A stretch of DNA of 64,000 nt. Source: Deinococcales bacterium. Lineage in GTDB: Bacteria; Deinococcota; Deinococci; Deinococcales; JAAFIG01. The position numbers and the translations under genes are program-made. Every line of letters begins with the position of its first letter. Within the stretch, counting starts at the first letter, position 1. The stretch lies in assembly GCA_031414595.1 (NCBI GenBank), contig JANNVX010000064.1:9283-73282 (forward strand), given 5' to 3'. The notes below the pieces were generated by a model, which was given only the letters and a program-made list of their open reading frames with translations, was not told the DNA's origin and made no database searches. Shown here piece by piece: positions 1-9,661 of the stretch.

Positions 1-297
1 AGCACAACAACGACTCCAAGCACAACGACAACTCCAAGCACAACGACAACTCCAAGCACAACAACAACAACAACAACCCCAACAACCCCAAGCACGACAA
101 CAACCCCAACAACTCCAAGTACGACAACAACTCCAAGTACGACAACAACTCCAAGTACGACAACAACTCCAAGTACGACAACAACTCCAAGCACAACAAC
201 GACTCCAACTACAACAACAACCCCAAGCACAACAACGACTCCAACTACAACAACAACCCCAAGCACAACAACGACTCCAAGTACGGCGACAGCCCCT
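1..297 (+). repeat. Coding tandem repeat encoding PSTTTT units
   Basis: 18-nt unit ccaagtacgacaacaact occurs 4 times perfectly at 115-186, with degenerate copies on both sides. Confidence 0.9.
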
Positions 298-576
298 GAC
301 CCAACCATCACAGCGCCAATCATTCCAGTTGCACCTACCGCCGAGTTAATAGAATTGCGTCGCCTTGTCCAAGAAGATTTACGTCTCGAGTATGCTGGTT
401 TTTCAATTGGCACAGTTAAAAAAGCCTTCTTTCAATCCAGTCGTGGTCTGCTATCAATTGCAGAAGGCGATCCCCTCATTCGTGATTCCAGTGTTATTCT
501 GAAATCGGTAAGCCCCACAGAAGTGGTTTTGGCACTCGGCAATGAACTCTTAACTCTACCTTTGGTGAAACGGTGA
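1..576 (+). CDS. 5'-truncated type IV pilus assembly protein (PilW/PilP-like) with long Thr/Pro/Ser stalk
   Basis: Frame 1 is open from base 1 (STTTTPSTTTTP...) and continues into the tracked 355..576 ORF. It ends in a ~65 aa beta-rich domain (LEYAGFSIG...SVSPTEVVLALG) and lies upstream of pilQ. Confidence 0.75.
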   Translation, partial: STTTTPSTTTTPSTTTTPSTTTTTTTPTTPSTTTTPTTPSTTTTPSTTTTPSTTTTPSTTTTPSTTTTPTTTTTPSTTTTPTTTTTPSTTTTPSTATAPDPTITAPIIPVAPTAELIELRRLVQEDLRLEYAGFSIGTVKKAFFQSSRGLLSIAEGDPLIRDSSVILKSVSPTEVVLALGNELLTLPLVKR

Positions 577-584
577 GGTCGCAC

Positions 585-1508
585 ATGAAGATTCAAATTT
601 CGTTACTCGCAATGGTACTCTGGATAGGGGCAAGCGTCGGTTTAGCGCAACAACCCTATGATGATCGCTTGCCCAAAGAAGCCCGTTTTGATCAACGCGT
701 GACGGTCAATTTGCCATCTGGTATTGACCTCAACACCTATATCAAAGAACTTGCTGGCACAATTGGATTACAACCAATTCTCGAGAACGTCCCGCAATTA
801 GCCGTGAACTACCCTCTGAACGATGTGAAATTCCGTGATGCTTGGAATGTCACAATGGCACTTGGTAATTTTGATTATGAATTACTGGGTAATGTGATGG
901 TTGTTTCTGATAAAGCATCTATTGAACGCTTGCGGGTTCTTAATGCCAGTCCAGCCTCACTTCCAACCAGCACTCCAAACGCCTTGTTGGCTCTAAATTT
1001 TACAGCCGGTAAAACCCTTGAAGGGGCCGTGCGTGATGTCGTGGCATTGGCAAAATTACAAGTCATTCCGGTCAACATCCCAAACCGCAACATTGATTAC
1101 AACCTAAGAGGCTTGCCCCTGCGTTTGGCTTGGAACGTATTGCTTGCATTGGGCGCACTTGATTATTACATCGTTTCAAACGACATCGTGACCGTTGGTG
1201 CAAGTGCCGCCATTGACCTACTGCGTCCTAAACCAGCCGTGGTTGTGCCTGTGGTGATTGCACCTCCTGTAGCCGTTCGCCCAGAACTCGAGGTCTTTGT
1301 AGATACGCAAAAAGTTGAATTTGTTGGCTTTGTGCTTTCTTCAGAAGTACGCAAGGCGGTGTTTCGCACTGCCCAAGGAATCAAAGTGGTGGCGGTTGGC
1401 GGTTCGCTGGTCAAAGACAGCAAAGTAGTCTTACGTTCATTCTCAGAAACAGAAGCGGTTCTCGCATTGGGCGATCAAACCATTACACTCAAGTTACAAA
1501 AACCATAA
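585..1508 (+). CDS. Secreted pilus-associated protein: two secretin-N0-like domains plus C-terminal PilP/PilW-like domain
   Basis: Signal peptide; ATG at 585 follows GAGGT. The N-terminus (DDRLPKEARFDQRVTV...DYELLGNVMVV) aligns by eye to the PilQ N-terminus, and the C-terminus aligns to the C-terminus of the upstream gene. Confidence 0.75.
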   Translation: MKIQISLLAMVLWIGASVGLAQQPYDDRLPKEARFDQRVTVNLPSGIDLNTYIKELAGTIGLQPILENVPQLAVNYPLNDVKFRDAWNVTMALGNFDYELLGNVMVVSDKASIERLRVLNASPASLPTSTPNALLALNFTAGKTLEGAVRDVVALAKLQVIPVNIPNRNIDYNLRGLPLRLAWNVLLALGALDYYIVSNDIVTVGASAAIDLLRPKPAVVVPVVIAPPVAVRPELEVFVDTQKVEFVGFVLSSEVRKAVFRTAQGIKVVAVGGSLVKDSKVVLRSFSETEAVLALGDQTITLKLQKP

Positions 1509-1524
1509 TTCTCGAGGTATAGTG

Positions 1525-3075
1525 ATGAACATGACAAAACTCAGAAACGTACTTCTGGTCGCTTTTTTCGCCCTCTCGAGTTTATGCGCCCCAGCCTTGG
1601 GACAACGAATCACCAATGATCGCTTCCCCAATGACGCACGATTTGACCAATTGGTAACGGTAGACATTCCTAGCAGTGGGATGGAATTATCACAGTACCT
1701 ACGTGAACTTGCCAGCCTAGTTAAACTCCAAGCCACCACTGAAGGTATTGCTGCTAAGAATGTGTCGTATAACTTCAAAGCCATTCCATTTCGTCAGGTG
1801 TGGAGCATGGTAGTTTCTTTGAACAACCTTGATTACGAACTCCTGCCTAATGATGTGGTGGTGGTTGGTCCTCCAGAAGTGGTGCAGAAATTCCGTCCAC
1901 CCGCCCCTGTTCAAACCGTAACCCCAACCAATACCACGCCAGCCGCAGTTTTGGTGGTTAAAACTTACGAAATTAAGTCCAACGCCGAAAATATCGCTAA
2001 GGCACTCAGCGCCCAATTTACCGATGTAAAAATTGTGCCTGTGGTCGGAACAAACAAATTGGTGATTACTGCCACACAAAGTCAGCACACTGATATTGCC
2101 GCGTTATTGGTACAAATTGATATTGCCAACACAGCACCCGTCGTGACCGATAGCTCAAGAATTGTACAGGAATTGTATGCGGTATCTTTTGGTAAGGCTT
2201 CTCGTTTAGCCGATATTCTAAAGCAATTGGTGGCAGGACCCACCACCACAGGCAATACAACCACTGGAACAGCCGCACCAAACGCTGTCGCAGTCCAAGC
2301 AGTTCCTAATATCAGCATTGTTGCCGATGACACCTCAAACACACTGATTATTCGCGGACCTGAAGCCTCGATAGCTGGATTAATTGCCTTGGTGCAAAAA
2401 CTTGATAAACCACAGCAATTGGTCAACATTGGGATTCGGATTCAAGAAAATAACGATTCTGCAACCCGTTCATTAGGTGTTGATTGGAAAAGCATCGGGC
2501 TTGGTAACTTCTCTGGTTCGATTATCGGCGGAGCGCTAAACTTTGTGGCAGACGCAACCAATAGCTTGGCTGGGTTAAATGTGACGGCTGCTTTGAACGC
2601 CCTCGAGACCCAAGGCTTATCGCGCCGAATTAACGACACAACCCTGACCGTTCTTAACAATGGAACTGGCTCTGTTCGTTCTGGTGGTCGAATCGAATTA
2701 AGTATTCCTGGAACAGCCACAAACATCAACAAAACCCTGACATTTGGTGTGAAAATTGATGCTTCGCCAACCATTGCCGCCGATGGCAGCATTACTCTGG
2801 ATCTGAATGCTGAAGTGAGTTCGGTTCAAAATGCAGCCAATCCAAACCCAAACCGTATTGATTTTGTGGATAACACCGCTAAGTCCATTGTTCGCTTGAA
2901 GTCTGGACAAACACTCTTACTGGCAAGTTTACTCGCCACAACCCAAGACACAACCACCTCGGGAGTGCCAATTCTGAGTGCAATACCTCTGATTGGTGAT
3001 TTGTTCAAGACCACCAAAACTCAAGATGACCAAAAGCAACTTCTGGTTGTGATTACAGCCGACATCATCAAATAA
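1525..3075 (+). CDS. pilQ: Type IV pilus/competence secretin
   Basis: Signal peptide, N domains with (G/A)KASRLADIL and VADDTSNTLIIRG, and a secretin C domain (LGVDW, ALETQG, GVPILSAIPLIGDLFK). Confidence 0.9.
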   Translation: MNMTKLRNVLLVAFFALSSLCAPALGQRITNDRFPNDARFDQLVTVDIPSSGMELSQYLRELASLVKLQATTEGIAAKNVSYNFKAIPFRQVWSMVVSLNNLDYELLPNDVVVVGPPEVVQKFRPPAPVQTVTPTNTTPAAVLVVKTYEIKSNAENIAKALSAQFTDVKIVPVVGTNKLVITATQSQHTDIAALLVQIDIANTAPVVTDSSRIVQELYAVSFGKASRLADILKQLVAGPTTTGNTTTGTAAPNAVAVQAVPNISIVADDTSNTLIIRGPEASIAGLIALVQKLDKPQQLVNIGIRIQENNDSATRSLGVDWKSIGLGNFSGSIIGGALNFVADATNSLAGLNVTAALNALETQGLSRRINDTTLTVLNNGTGSVRSGGRIELSIPGTATNINKTLTFGVKIDASPTIAADGSITLDLNAEVSSVQNAANPNPNRIDFVDNTAKSIVRLKSGQTLLLASLLATTQDTTTSGVPILSAIPLIGDLFKTTKTQDDQKQLLVVITADIIK

Positions 3076-3088
3076 ACCAAGCACCAAC

Positions 3089-3116
3089 AAAATGCCCCCA
3101 AGTTTGGGGGCATTTT
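3089..3116. terminator. Bidirectional intrinsic terminator
   Basis: aaaatgccccca-agtt-tgggggcatttt lies between convergent pilQ and the DUF790 gene. Confidence 0.9.
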
Positions 3117-4357
3117 TATATTGGGTGAACCAAGGAATTCGGCAAGCGTTCGGCGAGTTTCAGCACATTTTTAGGCTCGAGAACTCCTTTGAACCAAATA
3201 ATTTGATTGTTGTAGCGCTCGAGTTTTAGGGCGGTTTCTTTGCCTAAATTCAGGCGTTGTGAAACTGCCAAAATCAAATCTGGGCGCTCGGAGGCTTGAA
3301 TTTTTCGCAGTTTGCGTTCTAAATACTCGGCTCGCCAGTAGCCGATAATCTCAAGTAAAAGGCTGCGCCCGTCTGGGTGAACCAGCCTAAAATCTGGAAT
3401 CATGACTGTGCCGCCTAGGTCTACAATGTCTACTTCACGCTCGAGTTGCCAATCGGTTTGGGTAAGTGCAAAACGACTGGCAAAAGATTGCTCGAGCAAA
3501 CTGTCAAACATTTTTCCAGCGCTGTAATGTGATTTTAAGGTTGTGCTGTCGTTCAAAACGTATTCGGCTTCGTCCCTAGAACCATCGTAATGGCGCACTT
3601 GGATTTTACTTTGTAATGTCCATTTGGAAACATGCAGCAGGGCGGGTAAAAACTTGGCAAAAGCGATGCCATACCGTGTGCTGGGTTGAAATAAACTCGA
3701 AGGACCATCGAGCATAATGGTGTAGCCTGCATCTGGATCGCCGTTAATACGGTGCATTAAACCAAAGAGTTTTAGGTATTTGAACAACAGCTTGTACTGC
3801 CCGGGGTTGTTGCGGTGGGCTGTCACAAGCAATTCTGAGGCACGGTACAAGATACCTTGGGCTTGTGCAAGGTTATAGCGCGTCAGCAGCCATTCTGGAG
3901 TCGGGGCAGTAAAGGCAATAATTTGGGCTTCGCGCAAGTCGGCGTACAGGCTTTGTTCTAGGTTGACTCGAGTAATGGGTCTGGGTAAACCTGCGCTGAG
4001 TGTTGTTGCTACCATCTCGAGGGTTTGAGCGGCAGTGGCTAGGCTTGGGCGGTGCTTGGCTGCCATGGCAAAGACTTCGGCTCGAGCTACTGCGGGTTCA
4101 ATACTGCTTTGGGCGCTAAATTCACAACTTTCGGAGTACAACAAATGGGCTAACCCTCGGCGAACTCGGTAATCGGTGCTGTCGGCTGTATCCGCCTCGA
4201 GTGCTTCGTCTAGATCACGTCTTGAACGCCCATGATGCACTTCAAATAACAAAATAATGCCTCGAGCCAATTCGAGGTTATCGGCACTTAGCTCGAGGGC
4301 GTGGGGGGTAATAATGCCACCACGAAAAACATTGATTAAAAATTCGGTAGGTAGCAC
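3116..4357 (-). CDS. DUF790 family (Bax1-like) PD-(D/E)XK endonuclease
   Basis: YNLAQAQGILY, LDGPSSLF...RYG..FAKFLPALL and IPDF...LEIIGYW motifs. GTG start has CATAAT 6 nt upstream. Confidence 0.85.
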   Translation of the reverse strand: MLPTEFLINVFRGGIITPHALELSADNLELARGIILLFEVHHGRSRRDLDEALEADTADSTDYRVRRGLAHLLYSESCEFSAQSSIEPAVARAEVFAMAAKHRPSLATAAQTLEMVATTLSAGLPRPITRVNLEQSLYADLREAQIIAFTAPTPEWLLTRYNLAQAQGILYRASELLVTAHRNNPGQYKLLFKYLKLFGLMHRINGDPDAGYTIMLDGPSSLFQPSTRYGIAFAKFLPALLHVSKWTLQSKIQVRHYDGSRDEAEYVLNDSTTLKSHYSAGKMFDSLLEQSFASRFALTQTDWQLEREVDIVDLGGTVMIPDFRLVHPDGRSLLLEIIGYWRAEYLERKLRKIQASERPDLILAVSQRLNLGKETALKLERYNNQIIWFKGVLEPKNVLKLAERLPNSLVHPI

Positions 4358-9167: not shown

Positions 9168-9425
9168 TTATTCATAATGAAACCGACATGACGCAATAAA
9201 TAATTGCTCTCCTCGGACTTGATAAATAATTCTGTGTTCATCTGTTATCCGCCTTGACCAAAAACCTGCGTAATCGTACTTGAGTGGTTCGGGTTTTCCT
9301 GTTCCTGTAAAAGGGGTTCTTTTAATTTCCCCAATGAGTTGATTGATTTTTTTAATTAGCTTTGGTTCATTTTGTTGAAACCACAAATAATCTTCCTAAG
9401 CAATTTGCGAAAACTCGAGATTCAT
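9168..9425 (-). pseudogene. yoeB: Txe/YoeB toxin with in-frame amber stop at codon 10
   Basis: ATG at 9425 overlaps the antitoxin stop and reads MNLEFSQIA*EDYLWF...PFTGTGKPEPLKYDYAGFWSRRITDEHRIIY...CRFHYE. TAG at 9396-9398 is where YoeB normally has Trp. Confidence 0.85.
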
Positions 9426-9661
9426 AAATCTGCAAGATTTTTCTGAATTGTCTGTCCAGCTTTTATCTGCCTAATTCCCTCGAGAACCCGCGCTGCATTA
9501 ACAGGATTACTCTTAAGATACAGTGTTTCTTGCAAAGAATCCCATTCTTTTTTGGACATCACCACAAATTCTTCGCCCACCGAATTGACCAACAATGCCG
9601 AGCTTTCAACCTGACTTAAGACACTATCAAAACTTGGTTGTTCAACATGAATCGTAATCAT
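9422..9661 (-). CDS. yefM: Phd/YefM antitoxin
   Basis: VVMSKKEWDSLQETLYLKSNPVNAARVLEGI is a typical YefM segment; ATGA-coupled to yoeB. Confidence 0.85.
   Translation of the reverse strand: MITIHVEQPSFDSVLSQVESSALLVNSVGEEFVVMSKKEWDSLQETLYLKSNPVNAARVLEGIRQIKAGQTIQKNLADL

Follow-up and report, generated by a model that had tools for sequence, protein, structure and literature searches.

A chimera of PilQ-type N0 domains and a PilW-type HR domain encoded between pilW and pilQ: a candidate type IVa pilus subunit confined to a small Deinococcales clade

The window analyzed here, a 64,000-nucleotide stretch of a Deinococcales contig, begins inside a pilus operon. Reading the contig 9 kb upstream of the window as well, we found the operon order to be pilM (392 aa), pilN (228 aa), pilO (230 aa), pilW (565 aa), a gene that we call X, and pilQ, with pilW, X, and pilQ each in a different reading frame (Table 1). 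The 565-aa protein encoded upstream of X has one transmembrane segment and, after a Pro/Thr/Ser-rich linker of great length, a small C-terminal HR domain; no Pfam and no NCBIfam match was obtained for its C terminus. Judged by its position after pilM, pilN, and pilO and by its layout of transmembrane, disordered, and HR parts, which is that of Thermus PilW (PMC13039148), this gene is the PilW counterpart. In Thermus, PilW is encoded between pilO and pilQ and combines a transmembrane anchor and a flexible Gly/Pro-rich middle with a GspC-HR-like C-terminal domain; it connects PilQ to PilMNO, and PilQ stability depends on it (PMC13039148, PMC8578077). The slot straight after pilO is occupied by this true PilW-type gene and not by X, which also lies within the pilO-pilQ interval. 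Downstream of X, PilQ is readily recognized as a secretin (Pfam/NCBIfam: Secretin PF00263, 2.9e-30; Secretin_N, 6e-17).

Table 1. Features of the pilW-X-pilQ region, in window coordinates
Feature	Position	Strand	Remarks
pilW-like gene, 3' part	1..576	+	last 191 codons in the window; full gene at contig positions 8161-9858; window begins inside the linker
18-bp tandem repeat array in PilW linker	1..281	+	hexapeptide of TTTPST type, about 18.7 copies; contig 9236-9563, begins 46 bases before the window
HR (PilP/GspC-like) domain of PilW	331..573	+	parent of the C-terminal domain of X, by alignment and tree
RBS-like GGTGAGG	573..579	+	5 nt before the start codon of X; overlaps the pilW stop codon TGA at 574-576
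Gene X	585..1508	+	307-aa secreted periplasmic protein: signal peptide, N0a, helix/linker, N0b, Pro-rich linker, HR
Signal peptide of X, cleavable	585..650	+	residues 1-22, ...SVGLA/QQ (slash marks cleavage); read from sequence
N0a of X	657..920	+	residues 25-112; contains the PilQ-type N-terminal motif D-R-L-P-x-E-A-R-F-D-Q; closest paralogue of the PilQ N0
Helix and linker of X between N0a and N0b	921..986	+	variable helix, residues 110-121
N0b of X	987..1226	+	residues 135-214; diverged second N0 copy
Pro/Val-rich flexible linker of X	1227..1280	+	residues 215-232; aligns with the PilW pre-HR linker (alignment start X215/W99); probable fusion junction
HR domain of X	1281..1505	+	residues 233-307; six beta strands, PilP/GspC-HR fold; paralogue of the PilW C terminus
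pilQ	1522..3075	+	517-aa secretin: signal peptide, N0, two Secretin_N domains, secretin core
N0 domain of PilQ	1606..1881	+	residues 29-120; parent of the N0 domains of X

The open reading frame of X runs from an ATG at 585 to a TAA at 1506-1508, and all 17 aligned homologs share the methionine encoded by this ATG. From its sequence, the protein carries neither a lipobox cysteine nor a transmembrane anchor, and the mature form contains no cysteine at all.

Our data show that X is a chimera of parts from the resident pilQ and pilW genes. The original prediction had matched its N terminus to that of the adjacent PilQ. This was borne out at the protein level, where X 19-103 aligns with PilQ 25-110 at about 43% identity (BLASTP, E 1e-20), and at the DNA level, where 36 of 46 positions are identical between 661-706 and 1616-1661; in a control, the best X 46-mer reached only 25-30 identities against 60 random 1.55-kb stretches of the window. 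The internal duplication proposed for this domain was likewise recovered, N0a and N0b being 32% identical (E 2e-9), and N0b itself (X 140-214) matches the PilQ N0 at 35% identity (BLASTP, E about 2e-12 to 3e-12). The C terminus, said to resemble the end of the upstream gene, does so: X 215-306 aligns with the last 93 aa of PilW at 39% identity (E 4e-17), and across comparisons the identity of X-HR to the resident PilW HR ranges from 39% to 44%. X furthermore matches PilW open reading frames in four other families, including that of a Thermus genome, which aligns with X residues 226-305 at E 2.9e-4 genome-wide and at E 9e-6 in the locus set.

The AlphaFold2 model of X, built from a 17-sequence alignment, has a mean pLDDT of 80.3 and a pTM of 0.60, with pLDDT below 50 only in the signal peptide (1-24) and the Pro-rich linker (219-231). 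It shows a beta-alpha-beta-beta-alpha-beta-beta unit at 38-108, a helix at 110-121, a second alpha/beta unit at about 134-206, and six beta strands at 245-303. In this model, the N0 fold is present twice and is followed by the beta-sandwich fold of HR domains. Searched against the PDB with Foldseek, the N0 part matched Neisseria meningitidis PilQ (4ar0, the top match), ETEC GspD (4jtm_A; TMt 0.72, rmsd 2.4 Å), and 3ezj, as well as DotD. The C-terminal part matched the GspC HR (3oss_C; TMt 0.72, rmsd 2.5 Å), Pseudomonas aeruginosa PilP (2y4y, with TMt 0.63, and 2lc4), N. meningitidis PilP (2ivw), and the GspB HR (4wfw), every HR-type match having a Foldseek probability of at least 0.97. Two secretin-N0-like domains joined to a PilP/PilW-like domain, as the original prediction had read the protein, is therefore also what the predicted structure displays. 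Its proposed check by profile searches gave a divided answer: homology to the N0 and PilP folds stands by Foldseek, whereas no sequence-profile match was found, neither in Pfam or NCBIfam at E<=1 nor against PDB sequences by phmmer or with the alignment profile. Since annotation by sequence profile gave nothing, the N0 and HR domains of X are recognized only by fold comparison. The region joining N0a to N0b is modeled with a pLDDT of 79-92, and because of this the two domains are predicted to form a fairly rigid tandem that would add periplasmic layers.

X resembles three known kinds of protein in its parts but belongs, as they are defined, to none of the secretin, PilP, or PilW families. The N0 fold that it contains twice is that of the PilQ N0 (N. 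meningitidis 4ar0/4av2; same fold in GspD N0, 4jtm/3ezj), and N0a keeps the signal peptide and the mature motif D-R-[LF]-P-x-[DE]-A-R-F-D-Q of Deinococcales PilQ. Unlike PilQ, however, X has no N1-N3 domains, no C-terminal PF00263 core, and no beta-barrel, and it therefore cannot form a pore. The absence of a secretin barrel, already noted in the original prediction, agrees with the searches, as X has no Pfam or NCBIfam match at E<=1 where its PilQ neighbor matches Secretin and Secretin_N. With PilP (2y4y/2lc4 from P. aeruginosa, 2ivw from N. meningitidis) and the GspC HR (3oss_C), the C terminus of X has a beta-sandwich fold in common (Foldseek probability 1.00, TMt 0.63-0.72), and by analogy X-HR would do the same job, docking onto a secretin N0. 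But PilP carries a lipobox cysteine and GspC and GspB a transmembrane helix, whereas X is neither a lipoprotein nor membrane anchored; X has no sequence-level match to PilP (no PF04351 match at E<=1), and its HR domain is fused to the very kind of partner domain that it would be expected to bind. Like Thermus thermophilus PilW (TT_C1016), X lies directly upstream of pilQ and ends in a homologous HR-type beta domain. PilW, in contrast, has a transmembrane anchor, a long disordered Gly/Pro-rich spacer, and no N0, in place of the cleavable signal peptide and two N0 domains of X, and the X-bearing genome keeps its separate PilW-type gene just upstream.

The architecture, which the original prediction did not recognize, is absent from Pfam, from NCBIfam, and, in two protein libraries, from everything outside one small clade; neither the domain libraries nor the pilus and secretin literature that we consulted describes it. 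A word-indexed search of 5.8 billion clusters returned 18 full-length homologs, of which 15 are 71-99% identical to X and three 47-48%; no name and no Pfam domain is attached to any of them. In an exhaustive HMMER search of 1.84 billion representatives, a single 50%-identity cluster fell below E 1e-30, the other matches being secretin N termini or PilW-type C termini. Among these matches, the apparent stand-alone N0 relatives (P0029, P0034, P0037, P0049, P0051, and P0054) were rejected as truncated or frameshifted PilQ N termini, and P0023 (1301 aa, 16 matched stretches) as a junk repeat translation; P0027 and P0030, in which the aligned stretch continues past N0b into the N-terminal half of the HR domain, are ordinary secretins extended by a linker artifact. 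Of 151 genomes of the order, full-length X occurs only in the genus of the window (g1), in five of its eight genomes plus one in which the gene lies at a contig edge, the other two being fragmented. It was found in none of 11 genomes from the other four genera of the family and in none of 132 genomes of other families.

A sister lineage whose X is 47% identical (GCA_965188805.1) has the same arrangement, with pilMNO followed by pilW (577 aa), X (313 aa), pilQ (512 aa), and a DUF790 gene. X homologs always stand in the order pilMNO-pilW-X-pilQ, and an intact PilW is kept beside X in every X-bearing genome. A survey of pilus loci, proposed together with the original prediction, further sets this arrangement apart: all 17 other Deinococcales loci inspected have an open reading frame ending in a homologous HR domain, that is pilW, followed directly by a pilQ starting with a homologous N0 and no X between them. 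One of these 17 loci comes from a Thermus genome, whose PilM matches PDB 2ych at 621 bits; its pilW, read from the first GTG, encodes 323 aa and its pilQ 759 aa, in agreement with published sizes. X is thus a lineage-specific gain confined to one Deinococcales genus and one sister lineage, both uncultured. Going by the names of the metagenome-assembled genomes, the material comes from glacier-fed streams. We considered whether it compensates for a short PilQ and rejected this idea: genera g3 and g5 have a similarly short PilQ and do without X, so X is not a simple substitute for missing PilQ rings.

With X consisting solely of copies of two neighboring genes and known only from uncultured genomes, it could be suspected to be a decaying chimeric open reading frame, a nonfunctional by-product of duplication, or else an assembly artifact of one metagenome-assembled genome. 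Pairwise among four species of the genus, however, dN/dS is 0.07-0.10 over the whole gene with saturated synonymous sites (dS >1), which marks X as a working gene, and all three domains are constrained (0.02-0.07 for N0a, 0.04-0.17 for N0b, and 0.08-0.15 for HR). The reading frame is intact in all 18 homologs, down to 47% identity. As to an artifact, X is present in at least six independent assemblies, drawn from NCBI, JGI, ENA, and Logan and 47-99% identical, and its copies are only 30-45% identical to their parents, which makes a repeat misassembly impossible. We regard both versions of this explanation as effectively refuted. Sequence conservation peaks on one surface: no part of the protein is better conserved than the beta1+alpha1 face of N0a (residues 36-59), where 58% of positions are invariant over 17 sequences that include the 47% lineage, compared with 35% in the rest of N0a and 12% in the matching beta1+alpha1 segment of N0b.

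With respect to the origin of X, the phylogenies of its two kinds of domain differ in what they settle. In the HR tree, X-HR groups with the PilW-HR of X-bearing lineages in a single clade (97/92), to which no PilW-HR from the remaining genera of the family or from other families belongs; it follows that the resident pilW of the ancestor shared by the X-bearing lineages was the source of the HR copy. Within this clade, X-HR of the sister lineage groups with PilW-HR and not with the X-HR of g1 (96/91), a placement that needs either gene conversion or tree error as its explanation. In the N0 tree, N0a (99/99) and N0b (100/99) are each monophyletic, both predate the split of the two X-bearing lineages, and both fall in the PilQ clade of families f1 and f2 (98/97). 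In the best tree, they form one clade with the PilQ N0 of the same lineages at weak support (60/88); their branching inside the f1/f2 clade is unsettled, and monophyly of N0a plus N0b was neither recovered nor rejected (p-AU 0.2). N0a is about as distant from its own PilQ N0 (44% identity) as the PilQ N0 domains of different families are from each other, and because of this an older origin of X with later losses may be compatible with the N0 data taken alone.

The arrangement of the locus leads us to propose that X arose by a tandem duplication spanning the pilW-pilQ junction. In this scenario, the duplicated segment would begin in the pilW linker and end directly behind the N0-coding part of pilQ, so that, where the two copies meet, the signal peptide and N0 of pilQ become joined in frame to the linker and HR of pilW. 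This single event would give a series that reads pilW through its HR, then signal peptide-N0 joined to linker-HR, then the signal peptide and N0 of an intact pilQ. The chimera would thereby be left between its two parents, both of them retained, and a later internal duplication, which this model requires, would have doubled its N0 unit. Gene position, orientation, and domain order (the 5' part of pilQ and then the 3' part of pilW) are exactly as one tandem duplication predicts. At the putative junction, the residues "LRPKP" that close N0b align with "FRPPAP", which follows N0 in PilQ, and the linker that follows in X aligns with the PilW pre-HR linker, although the junction sequence has diverged too far for proof.

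In type IV pili, in type II secretion, and in competence systems alike, the HR:N0 contact serves as the universal joint that connects the inner-membrane platform to the secretin. At the X locus, copies of both sides of this joint are combined in a single additional subunit that is strongly conserved. In the GspC-GspD complex, the HR domain packs its strands beta1-beta3 on beta1 and alpha1 of N0, and the two beta1 strands pair by antiparallel augmentation (PMC3169554); PilP binds the PilQ N0 (PMC3441751), and OutB occupies the face of the OutD N0 that OutC also binds (PMC9239104). As HR domains dock on secretin N0 by beta-strand augmentation, X could insert into the PilW-PilQ connection. We therefore favor, with a probability of about 0.55, the reading that X is an extra, working subunit found only in this lineage's type IVa pilus/DNA-uptake machine, born by duplication of the pilW-pilQ junction and doubling of N0 and inserted in the PilW-PilQ link. 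X-HR would dock on the PilQ N0, and PilW-HR would dock on the conserved N0a of X. With X placed in this way, the periplasmic stretch from the inner-membrane platform to the secretin would hold one or two further ring layers. In structural terms, X probably acts as an adaptor or an extra ring between PilW at the platform and PilQ at the outer-membrane pore. We infer all three steps, binding of X to PilQ, binding of PilW to X, and ring formation by X, by analogy with these known complexes. The position in the operon, the purifying selection on all three domains, and the conserved docking face of N0a all fit such a role.

The same domains lend themselves to other uses, and a lengthening of the conduit by X is no better supported than a role as competitor or assembly factor. 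Holding both halves of the PilW-PilQ interface on a protein that lacks a membrane anchor, X might instead act as a competitor or modulator whose HR caps the PilQ N0 and/or whose N0 domains sequester PilW-HR, tuning or delaying the coupling of secretin and platform, for example as a pilus/DNA-uptake switch or as a gate on assembly. A precedent exists in the Dickeya dadantii type II secretion system, where OutB (GspB; 4wfw) is a second HR protein besides the GspC homolog OutC in one secretin machine, and, docking on one face of N0, the two partly interfere with each other (PMC9239104). OutB differs from X in being anchored in the inner membrane, in having a peptidoglycan-linked C-terminal extension and no N0, and in serving another machine in another phylum. 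Yet the gene is closely spaced from its neighbors in a structural operon and has an RBS of its own, in the manner of a subunit made in stoichiometric amounts; strong purifying selection acts on each of its three domains, and a pure decoy would require just one domain type. We hold a competitor role to be possible but unlikely.

Somewhat more doubtful is a role as a soluble periplasmic factor for secretin assembly or stability, in which X would escort PilQ protomers through HR:N0 contacts, perhaps template the ring with its own N0 domains, and be absent from the mature machine. Being soluble, X could travel with PilQ; in addition, PilQ needs PilW in Thermus both to be stable and to be localized to the outer membrane (PMC8578077, PMC13039148), and HR:N0 binding by GspB/OutB helps to target the secretin (PMC9239104). 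In every X-bearing genome, however, the intact PilW beside X already covers a chaperone role, and the conserved HR-receiving face of N0a suggests that X itself is docked by an HR domain.

The favored reading, X as a subunit inserted between PilW and PilQ, has a more elaborate form. Carrying both an HR and an N0 domain, X is self-complementary and could therefore assemble head to tail, the HR of one layer docking on the N0a of the next, to give a stack of periplasmic rings, variable in number, between PilW and PilQ and hence a modular extension of the conduit, adjustable in length and built from a subunit other than the secretin. We consider this stacking to be speculative and improbable; if true, it would be a natural example of how trans-envelope machines gain layers, caught soon after birth.

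Should X be an inserted adaptor or ring, it would mean that such machines can be lengthened or rewired by a self-docking module and not by extending the secretin. Thermus represents the other route, with N0-N5 rings in the secretin. The narrow distribution, the uncultured hosts, and a function that we infer set the limits of this conclusion. With regard to evolution, the locus offers an unusually clean case of how a new machine component may arise in one step from a gene-junction duplication.

We also asked whether the two HR copies have drifted asymmetrically, as a sign that one was retargeted to a new partner. No such asymmetry was seen between PilW-HR and X-HR, their identities to outgroups being 31.7% and 30.9% and their patristic distances 2.45 and 2.10, respectively, and the argument that PilW-HR was retargeted was dropped for want of a significant difference. 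The paralogous interfaces of these genomes, PilW-HR and X-HR on one side and PilQ-N0, X-N0a, and X-N0b on the other, constitute a ready-made system in which the divergence of HR:N0 specificity can be followed.

In the sister lineage (GCA_965188805.1, locus L019), the HR domain of X, the predicted periplasmic protein encoded between pilW and pilQ (307 aa in the window), clustered in the HR tree with the PilW HR domains (96/91) and not with the X HR domains of the window's own genus, g1. The motif YFRSSRGLL is common to this domain and the HR domain of the adjacent PilW. Gene conversion between the neighboring HR copies may explain this grouping.

For the sister lineage, the public annotation shows a pair of ORFs on the minus strand (394 and 82 aa) over pilW, where the gene caller missed the 577-aa, Pro/Thr-rich plus-strand ORF; PilW is therefore probably absent from the annotations of these metagenome-assembled genomes. 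Similar shadow ORFs are found in the window, one of which is listed in the table. Since part of the PilW linker is encoded by ~18.7 tandem copies of an 18-bp unit, each specifying a hexapeptide of the TTTPST type, and since stop-to-stop lengths of PilW differ within the genus (527, 567, 579, and 592 codons), the periplasmic spacer of this protein may be variable in length.

Across the Deinococcales loci compared (L021 to L040), PilQ ranges from ~500 to ~760 aa, owing to differing counts of Secretin_N-type ring domains, and the N-terminal motif of the mature protein, L-P-x-[DE]-x-R-F-D, is kept in nearly all PilQ sequences. A 413-aa gene lies convergent with pilQ; it is conserved at the equivalent position in the sister lineage, and the counterpart there carries Pfam DUF790.

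The 64-kb window has 383 copies of the palindrome CTCGAG, approximately one per 167 bp, versus 8.3 expected from shuffles, and one copy falls within the 13-nt spacer between X and pilQ. In the sister lineage (47% identity), the PilW and X HR domains each have a CTCGAG at their start, and these sites are homologous in position.

Coordinates of features in the window and at the sister-lineage locus (L002, sequence holding the linker array)
Feature	Position	Strand
18-bp array, PilW linker	window 1-281 (L002 9236-9563)	
Shadow ORF	window 3..413	-
CTCGAG copies, pilW-X-pilQ	window 385, 780, 1287, 1511, 1575, 2602	
413-aa gene	window 3116-4357	-
Sister-lineage pilW (577-aa ORF)	L019 6258-7991	+
Sister-lineage PilW HR domain	L019 7750-7988	
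Sister-lineage X gene	L019 8001-8942
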